Below are positions 2,388-21,244 of a stretch of 64,000 nt of DNA, one piece after another. This stretch comes from Candidatus Levyibacteriota bacterium (GTDB lineage: Bacteria > Patescibacteriota > Microgenomatia > Levybacterales > UBA12049): the NCBI GenBank assembly GCA_016182185.1, contig JACOXU010000001.1, positions 402,915 through 466,914 on the forward strand. Reading direction: 5' to 3'. The stretch's first letter is position 1; each line of letters opens with the position of its first letter. The notes below the pieces were generated by a model, which was not told where the DNA came from, did not search any database, and worked only from the letters and a program-made list of their open reading frames with translations. Both the position numbers and the translations under genes were made by a program.

Positions 2388-2700
2388 AACTCTGGAGAGA
2401 GAGTAAGCCAGATTCTGTTTCTACCGCAATCTATCTACGCCCTTTACTTGATGCTTCCGTAAGGGAGTATAGCGCATCATTCTAAGGTTGCAGCAGGTAG
2501 GATTGCCCGTTTCACTTTCACTCGTCTCTGTTGCTCTCAAGTCTTGTCAATTCAAGACCTGTTTCAAACTCCGCATGTGAATAAAGAGTCTGAACACCGT
2601 TTTCCCGGAGCTTACGCTCCGTCCCTTCCTTACTGCTGTCTGGACTTTCCTCCCCAATCATGTTTTAGGTGATCGGGGTAGCGGTTCTTCTCCCCAGAGC
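2388..2700 (-). ncRNA. rnpB: RNase P RNA (bacterial type A)
   Basis: The minus strand reads GCUCUGGGGAGAAG...GGGGAGGAAAGUCCAGACAGC (P4 5' half, matching GGAAAGUCC) and ...ACAGAAUCUGGCUUACUCUCUCUCCAGAG-UUUUUU (P4 3' half, ACAGAAnCnGGCUUA). A P1 helix pairs CUCUGGGGAGA with UCUCUCCAGAG. The length of about 310 nt is right for this RNA. Confidence 0.8.
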
Positions 2701-6378: not shown

Positions 6379-6524
6379 AAACTACAAATTCAAAGCACCA
6401 AGTCCCAAATAATACTTAAGTTTCAATTACCAAAATTCAAAACTGTTTTGAAATTATAATTTTGAAAATTGTAATTTATTTGGAATTTGTAATTTTGTAC
6501 TTGTAATTTGTTCATTAATTATAG

Positions 6525-6560
6525 CAAAAAAAGAAGCTTCCGAATTTTCGGCGTGCTTCT
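6525..6560 (-). terminator. Rho-independent terminator downstream of hup
   Basis: The minus strand reads AGAAGCACGCCGAAAATTCGGAAGCTTCT followed by TTTTTTT. Confidence 0.4.
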
Positions 6561-6592
6561 ATTTAATATTTGATCTTTAATATTTTATACTG

Positions 6593-6865
6593 TTATCTGA
6601 CTGCCTTTTTAAGTGTCTTTCCAGGAGTAAAACCAGGGGCTTTTCTTGATGCGATTGTAATTTTTTCTCCTGTCTTTGGATTTCTTCCTACTCTCTCCAC
6701 TCTGTTTCTTATACTAAAGGTACCAAAACCTGTAATTACAACTTTTTCTCCTCGCTTTAGTGAATCGCGAATAGATCCGACAAATGCCTGAACTGCATCT
6801 CTTGCTGCTTTATTTGTAAGATTTGCTTTTTTAGCTACGATCTCGATAAGATCTCTTTTGGTCAA
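6593..6865 (-). CDS. hup: DNA-binding protein HU
   Basis: The sequence is MTKRDLIEIVAKKANLT...GFGTFSIRNRVERVGRNPKTGEKI, a classical HU/IHF fold. The start is a TTG preceded by GGTGGTGA. Confidence 0.9.
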   Translation of the reverse strand: MTKRDLIEIVAKKANLTNKAARDAVQAFVGSIRDSLKRGEKVVITGFGTFSIRNRVERVGRNPKTGEKITIASRKAPGFTPGKTLKKAVR

Positions 6866-6908
6866 ATTACATCACCACCCTCTGGGCAAATAATTTTTGA
6901 TTTAGATT

Positions 6909-6937
6909 AAAAATACAATGAAAACAAGACATTGTCA
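6909..6937 (-). promoter_or_regulatory. Candidate promoter for hup (TTGACA-17-TATTTT)
   Basis: The hexamers are read on the minus strand upstream of the hup start. Confidence 0.3.
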
Positions 6938-6967
6938 ATATATCAAAAGAGAGCAAAATAAAGAATT

Positions 6968-7078
6968 GCGCGGGGAGTTTCTAAAATTTTCAATCTGAAC
7001 ATTTACGTAATATGATTGCTTTTCTAAAACACGCTTCTCGCGTTGTGAAGATGAAAATTTTTGGAAACGACCTCAGCG
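6968..7078. repeat. Palindromic repeat element, copy 1 (intergenic, rny 3' side)
   Basis: Nucleotide identity to 20791-20908 inside map is about 75%. Shared blocks are gcgcggggag, aaaatttt and cgacctcagcgt. The terminal inverted repeats are GTTTCtAAAATTTTCAatc and gatGAAAATTTTTGGAAAC. Translation is broken by stops, so this copy is non-coding. Confidence 0.55.
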
Positions 7079-7088
7079 TTCTCAAAAA

Positions 7089-8354
7089 TTAGTTTTCAGA
7101 CTGAGAGGAAATTGCACGAAACTCGCGAATTGCTGTAACTTTCACCTCTCCCGGAACTGCAAGAGAGCTGCTTACTTCATCTCGTATCTTATGAGCAATC
7201 AGTGTAGTTTGGGAGTCATCTAGTTTTCCCGGATCAATAATAACGCGTAGCTCTCTTCCTGCCTCAAAAGCATATGCATCCTCAACGCCCTCATATTTCT
7301 TGGCAATTTCTTCCATATCTTTAAGTCTTACTGCGTATTCCTCTACGTCCTCGTACCTTGCGCCGGGCCTTGCTCCCGAAATTGCATCAGCGATATAAAC
7401 TATAACTGATTCAATTGAGGAAAATGGCTTATCTTCATGATGTTCAAGCACGCAATTTATGACCTCCTCGGGCATACTAAACCTTTTGAGAAGTTCTGCT
7501 CCAAGTTTGACGTGACTTCCGTCTCCCTCAACAACTTTACCGACATCATGAAACAAACAGCCAAGCCTTACGATATTTACATTTGCTCCTAATTCATGAG
7601 CAATATGTATCCCTATTTTTGTTTCTTCCAAAGTATGAACAACTAAGTTTTGTCCGTATGAAGTTCTGAATTTAAATCTACCTAGAATTGATAATAAATC
7701 TTTTGGAAGATTAAAAACTCCCACTTCGTGAGCAAGTTTTTCGCCCTCCTCAAACATTATCTTTTCTACTTCTTTTCTAGTTTGTTCGACAATCTCCTCA
7801 ATTCTGAATGGCTGTATTCTTGTATCTTTTATTAATTTTTCCAAAGATCTTCTTGCGACCTCTCGCCTTATCTGATCAAAAGAAGAAAGTCTGATTACGC
7901 CTTCCTCATCTAGATCAACATCGACGCCTGTTGCTTGTTCAAATGCGCGGATATTTCGTCCTTCTTTTCCAATAATTCTTCCCTTTAAGTCTTCATCAGG
8001 AATTTTCACCACCGACACCGTGTATTCTGCTATGTAGTTGAGGGCGCCGTGGCGCATGCTGTCGATTAATATTTCCTGCGCTTTTTTATCTGCCGTTCTT
8101 TTTGCCTCTTCTTCTCTCTCTTTAATAATACGCGCAGCTGCTTTGGCTTCTTGCTGTTCTACTTCTTTTAATAATTCCTGTCTGGCCTCATCTCTCGTCA
8201 AAGAAGAGATTTTCGATAATTTATCCTTGTATTCTTCTTTAAGTCTTGCAAGATTTTCTTTTTCCTTTTCAATATTTTCTTCCCGTTCGAGAAGTTTTTT
8301 CTCAAGTTTTATAAGATCTGGACTCTGTGCTGCCATAAAATTATACGAGGACAA
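7089..8354 (-). CDS. rny: Ribonuclease Y
   Basis: N-terminal coiled coil, KH domain (GRIIGKEGRNIRAFE), and HD domain (HSLEVAH-like, CLFHDVGK). The ORF-track start is a TTG at 8354; an in-frame ATG at 8336 (MAAQSPDL) is the alternative start. Confidence 0.85.
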   Translation of the reverse strand: MSSYNFMAAQSPDLIKLEKKLLEREENIEKEKENLARLKEEYKDKLSKISSLTRDEARQELLKEVEQQEAKAAARIIKEREEEAKRTADKKAQEILIDSMRHGALNYIAEYTVSVVKIPDEDLKGRIIGKEGRNIRAFEQATGVDVDLDEEGVIRLSSFDQIRREVARRSLEKLIKDTRIQPFRIEEIVEQTRKEVEKIMFEEGEKLAHEVGVFNLPKDLLSILGRFKFRTSYGQNLVVHTLEETKIGIHIAHELGANVNIVRLGCLFHDVGKVVEGDGSHVKLGAELLKRFSMPEEVINCVLEHHEDKPFSSIESVIVYIADAISGARPGARYEDVEEYAVRLKDMEEIAKKYEGVEDAYAFEAGRELRVIIDPGKLDDSQTTLIAHKIRDEVSSSLAVPGEVKVTAIREFRAISSQSEN

Positions 8355-20377: not shown

Positions 20378-21244
20378 CTATTTTGTCAAAATTACTGGCC
20401 CTTCTTTTGTGATAGCAATCGTTCTTTCAAAAAGACCTGAGATACTGCCGTCAGCTGTTTTAATTGTCCAGTTATCGTCCCTCGAAAGAATCACATCGCT
20501 TTTACCCATATTGTAAATTGCTTCAATTGCGATGGCCATCCCTTCAGAAAGTAAAGGTGTTTTGGCAACTTTTGATGTAAGAAATCCTGGAATTTCAGGC
20601 TCCTCATGTAGCTTTTTGCCTACTCCATGCCCAACGAGCGATCTAACCACGGAATAACCTTTACTCTCTATAATATTTTGAATTGTTTCTGAAATATTTC
20701 CAACTCTATTTCCTACCTTTGCCACCTTAATTGCTTCTCCGAGTGCTTTCTTTCCAGTCTGTAAAAATGTAATAAGTAAATCATAATTTTGGCGCGGGGA
20801 GCTTGCAAAATTTTTGCTGTGAGCATTTGCGCTAACTACCTTCTTGCTTTTCAAACCAAGATCACCCGCTTTGTGAACACGAAAATTTTCGGAAGCGACC
20901 TCAGCGTCAACTATTATTGTCTCTGCCATATCTGTATGAAATCCTTTGAAAAAAACTCCACAATCGATACCGACAATATCCCCATTTTTAAACTTATAAT
21001 TTGTTGGTATTCCATGAACAACCGCATTGTTTGTTGAGACACAAATTGAATATTTATAACCCTCGACTTTCTTAAAACCAGGTTCTGCGCCTTTTGATCT
21101 TATTAATTTTTCTGCCAGCTTATCAATCTCAATCTCAGAAACGCCTGGCTTAATATTTTGAAGAAGCTCAGATAAAACAGAGGCTAAAATTTCACCACCC
21201 TGCCTCATTTTTTTTATTTCTTCCTTGGATTTTAAATTAATCAT
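20378..21244 (-). CDS. map: Methionine aminopeptidase type 1, with an insertion of about 40 aa encoded by a repeat element
   Basis: Pita-bread fold motifs are present (GHGVG; metal ligands D, D, H, E, E). Confidence 0.9.
   Translation of the reverse strand: MINLKSKEEIKKMRQGGEILASVLSELLQNIKPGVSEIEIDKLAEKLIRSKGAEPGFKKVEGYKYSICVSTNNAVVHGIPTNYKFKNGDIVGIDCGVFFKGFHTDMAETIIVDAEVASENFRVHKAGDLGLKSKKVVSANAHSKNFASSPRQNYDLLITFLQTGKKALGEAIKVAKVGNRVGNISETIQNIIESKGYSVVRSLVGHGVGKKLHEEPEIPGFLTSKVAKTPLLSEGMAIAIEAIYNMGKSDVILSRDDNWTIKTADGSISGLFERTIAITKEGPVILTK
20791..20908. repeat. Palindromic repeat element, copy 2 (in-frame inside map)
   Basis: Nucleotide identity to 6968-7078 is about 75%. The terminal inverted repeats are GCTTGCAAAATTTTTG and CGAAAATTTTCGGAAGC. 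It encodes the two similar half-peptides ASENFRVHKAG and AHSKNFASSPR. Confidence 0.55.

Follow-up and report, generated by a model that had tools for sequence, protein, structure and literature searches.

A hairpin-forming element downstream of rny in a Levybacteria genome: an intact, non-coding member of a putatively mobile family

The spacer downstream of rny in a Levybacteria contig contains a hairpin element of 112 bases (6968–7079 on the plus strand, the strand carrying GGGGAG), which is a structurally intact, non-coding member of a larger family. Positions refer to the window, that is, the whole stretch of 64,000 nt analyzed here. With a probability of ∼0.6, the underlying element is a non-autonomous mobile DNA that forms a hairpin (palindrome), of which this copy is intact and non-coding; the presence of the copy behind rny is most likely that of a tolerated insertion.

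The two genes adjoining the element are both encoded on the minus strand: rny, encoding RNase Y (7089–8354; Pfam RNase_Y_N, KH_1, and HD), and hup, encoding an HU-type DNA-binding protein (6593–6865; Pfam Bac_DNA_binding). The original prediction had placed the element directly downstream of rny, which is correct, but at a distance of 8 nt; the gap between the rny stop codon (7089–7091) and the outermost helix is 9 nt (7080–7088). It had also placed it upstream of the hup promoter, and a promoter scan indeed returned a promoter-like site (TTGACA-17-TATTTT; 6938–6910, minus strand) between the element and hup, with 29 nt separating the element from the −35 box. When aligned by blastn, the element (6968–7079, plus) and the copy residing in map (20792–20907, plus) were 77% identical over 117 columns (E = 5.7e-16). 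Covariance model R1 recovered only these two copies from the window, with 84.1 bits (rny copy) and 88.9 bits (map copy), which substantiates the notion of a second copy of the map-insertion repeat. The two halves of the same match had been reported as D9 and D10 by a repeat search of the window. The end motifs GCGCGGGGAG (10 nt) and CGACCTCAGCG (11 nt) occur in the 64 kb only at the rny and map copies when at most one mismatch is allowed. A 31-nt inverted repeat (50105–50135/50367–50397) contains CTGAGGTCG and spans the end of a gene for a 128-aa protein and the start of rpoB; since it falls within the coding regions of two genes, with a complementarity of 74%, it was judged a chance resemblance rather than a family copy.

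The rny copy carries all features of the family, namely, P1, P2, a bulged A, an internal loop, P3, and an apex. P1 is formed by GCGC (6968–6971) and GCGT (7076–7079), the outermost pair being G·U. The 5′ core GGGGAG (6972–6977) pairs via its first four G residues with CCTC (7071–7074), leaves A6976 unpaired, and connects via G6977 to C7068; in the 3′ core CGACCTCAG (7068–7076), GA (7069–7070) is unpaired and A7075 is bulged. The arms of P3, GTTTCTAAAATTTTCAA (6977–6993) and GATGAAAATTTTTGGAAAC (7051–7068), were derived from folds and, for the 5′ arm, also from covariation. They are the complementary arms previously regarded as terminal inverted repeats; their complementarity is real, but they constitute an inner stem, and the element reaches further out to P1. 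Secondary structure prediction, one of the checks proposed at the outset, yielded an end-to-end hairpin, which was more stable on the plus strand (−33 to −34 kcal/mol) than on the minus strand (−25 to −26 kcal/mol). To call this copy degenerate or decayed, as had been done, is misleading: it is the most diverged copy of the family (at most 77% identical to any other), yet it has the full P1/core/P3 architecture and scores 84 bits, like intact members. GGGGAG at 6972–6977 and (C)GACCTCAG at 7068–7076 are present in the right order and spacing. Its non-coding nature, in contrast, was confirmed, as stops are present in all three gene-strand frames and the distance from core to core is 105 nt and, thus, not 1 mod 3. 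The translation given for it, ENAEVVSKNFHLHNARSVF followed by a stop, is exact for 7083–7024 (minus strand) and is out of frame with rny. The widespread family, its invariant core and covarying stems, and the antisense orientation of the better-folding strand relative to rny and map had not been part of the original prediction.

Further members were sought in two ways. A genome scan (one genome per species; two end motifs 80–110 nt apart) returned many chance matches in GC-rich genomes, plus about 28 true relatives in Patescibacteria MAGs (Levy-, Gottesman-, Shapiro-, and Chisholmbacteria and others). A metagenome scan that was constrained to the inner core and to the AAAATTTT arms found in the subfamily of the window, and left the outer helix free, added 55 copies. 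Loci L124–L177 came from groundwater metagenomes of Rifle and Hainich. The family was recovered from ∼90 unique sites (88 unique copies with the same core from both scans), and its elements are 100–130 nt long. The shared core reads 5′-GGGGAG … (C)GACCTCAG-3′. Its P2 (GGGG/CCTC) is a helix of 4 bp with one invariant G·T(U) and a bulged A on the 3′ strand, followed by a 1x2 internal loop (A opposite GA), a long covarying P3, and a variable apex. P1 comprises 4–8 bp in the 88 unique copies; its two inner pairs (C-G and G-C) are almost invariant, and its outer pairs covary (usually GCGC/GCGC, but also TTGC/GCAA, ATGC/GCAT, AACGC/GCGTT, and others).

The core helix pairs did not vary in 29 pattern-selected copies, an invariance partly built in because the search patterns fixed the end motifs; unbiased in this respect are only the variation in P1 and the copies found by the model. 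The core was likewise retained among copies recovered by R1 despite the lack of an exact match at the ends. Both P1 (pairs 3–7) and P3 covary between GC, CG, AU, and UA, with 95.3% of the cells paired; none of 500 shuffles reached that value, and slid controls amounted to ∼40%. The interiors of the subfamilies are wholly different (43–73% GC), yet every relative from the genome scan folds into a long end-to-end hairpin.

At the Rfam gathering threshold, nothing in the whole window matched besides RNase P and one tRNA; at a permissive E-value, the region 6850–7150 gave only chance-level matches (E>4), and an Actinomycetota copy gave no match. The window's RNase P RNA (2392–2697, minus strand) reaches the gathering score only with the archaeal model RF00373 (86.5 bits; cut-off 84), the genome being bacterial (Levybacteria). 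The literature was searched for the end motifs as well as for MITEs and palindromic elements of CPR/Patescibacteria, with no relevant result, and the family appears not to have been described yet. No true copy was present in phage and plasmid collections or IMG/VR; the 27 viral matches to a relaxed pattern were chance matches devoid of P3 pairing. At four places (L129 5098–5196; L131 2595–2684 and 3048–3142; L167 2080–2182), the AAAATTTTCGCTGTTCGC arms are kept and the core is replaced by TGAGG…CCGAGG with symmetric GA-type loops; these relatives may be decayed copies or a sister family. Locus L064 (430–560) contains a run of N, a duplicated LeuRS fragment, and a second, variant element end (CGACTTCAGCGC), probably two strain variants merged in scaffolding.

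The two strands of the element are not equivalent. Of 29 copies, 28 were predicted to fold more stably as the GGGGAG strand than as its complement (mean, −50.8 vs −42.3 kcal/mol). Within the first six pairs of P3, G·T/T·G wobbles outnumbered A·C/C·A mismatches (69 vs 7), and the same was true when one representative per 75% identity cluster was counted (∼47 G·U vs 5 A·C over trusted clusters; 72 vs 6 over all 23 clusters). This strand is the plus strand in the window and, thus, antisense to rny, hup, and map; judging from negative GC skew, it is probably the leading-strand template. The orientation bias is strong throughout, with copies lying antisense to genes and only one convincing case of a genic copy on the same strand as its host (UvrD, L102). 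Stop codons or hydropathy, considered as its sole cause, are insufficient.

Nearly half of the unique low-GC copies (32/73) are embedded in long ORFs encoded by the other strand, which they extend in frame and without stops, usually being read as AEV…SPR. The host proteins include LeuRS (at three sites), YchF, a Mur ligase, RadA, GT1 glycosyltransferases, Lgt, a 6PGDH-like protein, and MetAP, and the inserts comprise 14–43 aa. The core length is 1 mod 3 in 26 of the 32 genic copies versus 21 of the 41 non-genic ones, and in 20 of the latter all three gene-strand frames contain stops. As the genic copies are stop-free and mostly of this length, unlike the non-genic ones, they are evidently translated and not spliced out; the constraint on frame and the small size of the insert also rule out an intron, an intein, other splicing, or a DGR. 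In some hosts, other frames are used (LRS..APRA, ARG..TSA, and RGE..TSA) with the same nucleotide ends, which argues for conservation at the level of the nucleic acid. At one position in glycosyltransferase paralogues, the interiors are unrelated. The intergenic copies are mostly antisense to both neighbors and start 3–17 nt past the upstream stop codon, like the rny copy.

The copy in map, the gene for type I methionine aminopeptidase (20378–21244, minus strand), is located at 20792–20907 on the plus strand, opposite to its host; the bounds of 20781–20910 assigned earlier had to be corrected. It is translated in frame as part of a 40-aa insert (DAEVASENFRVHKAGDLGLKSKKVVSANAHSKNFASSPRQ; codons 20789–20908). 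The AlphaFold model of the window's MetAP is confident except for the insert (residues 116–150; pLDDT ∼30), which forms the loop joining strand 102–111 to helix 150–174. This loop exists in several states among MetAP orthologues: empty, with a full insert, with a mini insert, or with other, unrelated hairpin inserts. In sequence, the map copy is closer to copies from other genes of other genomes (90% identity with one in a 1045-aa protein, L169; 87% with the Mur ligase copy, L093) than to its orthologous counterpart in the MetAP gene of L119 (83%). An exhaustive phmmer search with the 40-aa insert against 1.8 billion proteins returned only three matches, a low number that reflects a query too short for so large a library; a word-index search returned none. 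The inserts in the MetAP genes of L121 (10001–10822), L122 (10001–10852), and L123 (82–954; P0018), all from other Levybacteria, occupy the same loop but are different hairpin elements and were rejected as family members. In L123, a direct repeat of 17 nt, TCAAATCTCAAATCTCAA (a tandem heptamer), borders the insert, and relatives without an insert also have tandem heptamers at this position. The loop thus has the appearance of a hot spot for several families of elements.

The covariance model also revealed a recurrent mini form of 44 nt, GGCGC-GGGGAG-CCCCGC-NNTG-GCGGGG-CGACCTCAG-CGCC, which is in frame in four unrelated proteins and read as GAEVAPPxRGSPR. At both mini sites that could be compared, a relative has a full-length member at exactly the same site, namely, in the pair L119/L120 in map (flanks ∼94% identical) and in the pair L145/L167. 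The full interior does not contain the mini interior as a sub-sequence; the latter may represent a footprint, a replacement, or the product of an exchange of the recombination-site type.

That the element is mobile is suggested by its scattered presence and absence, including the different states of the MetAP loop, and by the closer match of the map copy to copies in other genes than to its orthologue. In L119, the closest available genome (MetAP 73% identical, same gene order), the rny–hup spacer lacks the element and measures 94 nt, versus 223 nt in the window, and the block with the hup promoter is kept; judged from this comparison, the rny copy is probably a lineage-specific intergenic insertion just 3′ of the rny stop codon. 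(Elsewhere in L119, at 320–1349, rplB is called as two ORFs, 320–811 and 826–1071, and a 92-aa ORF without a Pfam match, 1071–1349, lies between rplB and rpsS.) Some contigs contain three to four copies within 6 kb, and one copy of 73% GC resides in a genome of 36% GC (L033). True members with the same core are also present in high-GC Actinomycetota MAGs, in the rplQ–truA spacer and in a linker of the error-prone polymerase DnaE2. That one core is shared by high-GC Actinomycetota and low-GC Patescibacteria, and that GC-rich copies reside in AT-rich genomes, points toward a transfer between phyla. Among Actinomycetota DnaE2 proteins that are 93–95% identical, one and the same site is represented by empty, gene-antisense full, composite, and remnant alleles, the composite consisting of a partial inverted copy and a gene-sense full copy. 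Such an arrangement, in which a partial copy (3′ arm, reverse-complemented) adjoins a full copy of opposite orientation, is found at L107 (3060–3110) and in several Actinomycetota DnaE2 genes, and suggests nested insertion or rearrangement at the element.

The search for a mobilizing enzyme was negative. Within the 207 loci, no matching ends 135–6000 nt apart were found, except for adjacent separate copies, and thus no autonomous partner or composite element. No enzyme or transposase recurred as a neighbor; clustering of the ORFs from 66 element-bearing loci gave nothing but housekeeping genes in synteny and one artificial cluster, which was linked through the insert peptide. The sole Y1_Tnp gene in the loci (L121, 17857–18525; 222 aa) scored 52.8 bits with NCBIfam REP_Tyr_transpos, below the cut-off of 80. 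It is accompanied, on its Levybacteria contig (region 17780–18580), by its own inverted repeats of ∼35 nt (TTCACCTGGGGGGTGTACTAGCTTGACACGTAGGG/CCCTAGGTGTCAACGTAATCCACCTCCCAGGTGTA), which are unrelated to the element studied here, and it resembles a RAYT with its own REP-like sequences. A RAYT was rejected as the mobilizer, as this gene has different repeats and no element nearby, and no other Y1 gene is present in the loci.

We infer that movement proceeds via a single-stranded hairpin intermediate: a trans-acting enzyme encoded elsewhere would bind the folded single GGGGAG strand and move or copy the element. Insertions would persist only where they are harmless: either as translated, stop-free additions that keep the frame and extend a surface loop of a protein (map copy), or a few nucleotides past a stop codon in compact operons (rny copy). 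The rny copy would accordingly be neutral or have a minor role as a 3′-UTR stem-loop. Several observations weigh against a mobile element. Besides the lack of an autonomous partner, transposase, or recurrent neighbor family in the loci examined, neither a target motif nor a target-site duplication became apparent: no consistent direct repeat flanked the copies, and the junctions in the L119 rny–hup spacer, the MetAP orthologues, and the empty DnaE2 alleles were too remodeled for a duplication to be read. The invariant core and the kept pairing would equally fit selection for an RNA function. Furthermore, copies from a single genome differ considerably (77% identity in the window), so there is no sign of a recent burst here, and the orientation bias is not accounted for by stops or hydropathy alone.

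REP, ERIC, and similar intergenic repeats have been described as 3′ stem-loops, and the rny copy might have been co-opted likewise, either as a stabilizer against 3′ exonucleases or as a weak terminator or insulator before the hup promoter. Its position, 9 nt past the rny stop codon and 29 nt before the −35 box, would suit such a role, as would the position of the intergenic members of other genomes, again 3–17 nt past stop codons, and the gene-sense RNA still forms an end-to-end fold (−26 kcal/mol), with AAUUCUUUAUUUUG behind it. However, this fold is not significant (z −1.7; 14 of 200 shuffles fold as well or better), and the better-folding strand is the antisense one. A scan of 6500–7400 for intrinsic terminators (GC-rich stem, short loop, direct U tract) was negative; the downstream tract is U-rich but begins with AA, and the other intergenic copies have no consistent U tract. 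Moreover, L119 has the same rny–hup synteny without the element, which is, therefore, not a conserved part of rny expression. We consider such a co-opted role rather unlikely.

Alternatively, the family could be a functional structured RNA, or an RNA–protein recognition module, made from the GGGGAG strand, with the core being kept for binding a conserved cellular factor. In favor of this are the invariant core with one invariant G·U, bulged A, and asymmetric loop, flanked by covarying helices in two phyla, and the excess of G·U over A·C on the GGGGAG strand; a weak promoter-like site (6932–6959, plus strand) also lies just upstream of the rny copy. Yet there is no Rfam match, and the copies occur at unrelated positions in unrelated genes, where an antisense promoter is not generally expected. 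Presence, absence, and replacement among close relatives, an apex so variable that the length ranges from 44 to 130 nt, and the flipped orientation in some hosts (L102; the composite DnaE2 copies) likewise speak against this alternative, which we regard as improbable.

Slightly less credible again is the idea that the elements are folded single-strand recombination sites analogous to integron attC, in which P1 and the core would represent the crossover and the interior would be exchanged or excised to yield full and mini forms at one locus. The architecture is parallel (paired box, extrahelical bases, unpaired spacer, and a terminal structure of varied length), and folding is strand-specific. 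The coincidence of mini and full sites in both comparable cases, the same 44-nt mini form at four unrelated loci, and the unrelated interiors at one position of glycosyltransferase paralogues would also agree with it. However, the motifs RYYYAAC/GTTRRRY are absent, no integrase, cassette array, or attI context was seen, and the same data fit independent re-insertion or replacement. In L145/L167, P1 differs too, so exchange was not confined to the interior. Finally, selection of the repeat as a protein module (AEV..ENF..SPR), which would make the rny copy a dead coding fragment, agrees with the one preferred frame of the genic copies and the surface position of the MetAP loop but is already disfavored and hardly credible, as the nucleotide ends are kept in three different frames and both orientations (AEV.., LRS.., ARG.., RGE..) and in intergenic copies, the interiors differ wholly among subfamilies while pairing stays, and the pLDDT of the insert is ∼30.

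Returning to the mobile hairpin element, a more far-reaching proposal can be made, albeit tentatively: the family may be an unrecognized class of structure-specific mobile hairpins, the candidate enzyme for which would read the GGGG/CCTC helix, the bulged A, and the G·T wobble of the folded strand. It would exist in interconvertible full (∼120 nt) and mini (44 nt; GAEVAPPxRGSPR) states at the same site, pass from phylum to phylum (Patescibacteria and Actinomycetota), and reshape surface loops in essential proteins. CPR genomes, which are small and compact, are regarded as poor in mobile DNA. If the proposal is true, they carry a selfish or semi-domesticated hairpin element that adds 14–43 residues to essential enzymes such as MetAP, LeuRS, RadA, YchF, DnaX, DnaE2, and others, and the family would be the first analogue of the Rickettsia palindromic elements (RPEs) outside the obligate intracellular Proteobacteria. 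The invariant asymmetric core (a 15-nt motif plus pairing) could serve as a handle in the hunt for the enzyme, and the core motif can be used to annotate inserts that now inflate or split gene calls and confuse alignments. For the window, the element accounts for the odd 40-residue loop of map and for the extra 129 nt in the rny–hup spacer.

Several known systems share features with the family. According to the part of PMC10969869 that deals with them, the RPEs (Ogata et al, 2000) are palindromic repeats of ∼100–150 bp with many in-frame insertions in unrelated housekeeping genes, which are translated as extra surface peptides; intergenic copies exist as well, and the mobilizing enzyme is described there as not known. 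A palindromic repeat of this size, in frame and read through, is also what the map copy and the other 31 genic copies represent. As far as this comparison by description goes, the differences are that the hosts are Patescibacteria and Actinomycetota and not Rickettsia, that only an asymmetric core of 6 + 9 nt is kept while stems covary and interiors differ wholesale by subfamily, and that there is a 44-nt mini form and a strong strand and orientation bias.

REPs and REPINs have a short conserved head (GTAG or CGTC) on a 20–40-nt palindrome, are extragenic, and are mobilized by RAYT (Y1 HUH) transposases. They, too, combine a short head with an imperfect palindrome, are strand-specific, being recognized as folded single-stranded DNA, and have copies just past stop codons; they are also non-autonomous, with the enzyme encoded elsewhere (as would be the case here), and show no obvious target duplications. 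The family studied here, however, has GCGC-GGGGAG and …CCTCAGCGC as heads instead of GTAG/CGTC, forms a single and much longer hairpin (100–130 nt), is intragenic in nearly half of its copies, and has no RAYT gene flanked by the same repeats among the loci examined. With attC sites it shares conservation of only structure and short basal boxes, extrahelical or unpaired bases that set the functional strand, and a variable terminal structure with a wide range of lengths, represented here by the bulged A, the 1x2 loop, the strand asymmetry, and 44–130 nt. The R″/R′ core sites (RYYYAAC/GTTRRRY), in turn, are absent from all copies, which reside in frame inside, or just after, housekeeping genes and in no integrase or cassette context. 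As the defining sequence features of REP/REPIN and attC are not present, the family was assigned to neither, and from RPEs it was set apart by description.

Less similar are classical MITEs, from which the family differs by its asymmetric ends (GC-GGGG-A-G vs GC-T-GAGG-TC-G) and the lack of a longer element with the same ends in the 207 loci. ERIC, Correia/NEMIS, YPAL, BOX, and other MITE-like repeats are co-transcribed with flanking genes, and some carry ORFs, with occasional in-frame fusion (PMC10969869). They are imperfect palindromes of similar size; within a given genus or family, however, their sequence is conserved over its full length, and they have terminal inverted repeats as well as target duplications, whereas the family described here spans phyla and keeps only core and pairing. 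Coding palindromes and GC-cluster or “byp” hairpin inserts in mitochondrial genes, for example, of Nematomorpha (PMC6649704), are likewise inverted repeats within coding sequence, both arms being coding; they are organellar, however, and without a shared invariant core, and byps are bypassed by the ribosome, whereas the elements here are read through. By analogy, the closest behavior would be that of RPEs and the closest architectures those of REP/REPIN and attC. The family is best described as a palindromic in-frame insertion element that is unusual in the asymmetry and invariance of its core, in its covarying helices, in having both a mini and a full state, and in occurring in two phyla.
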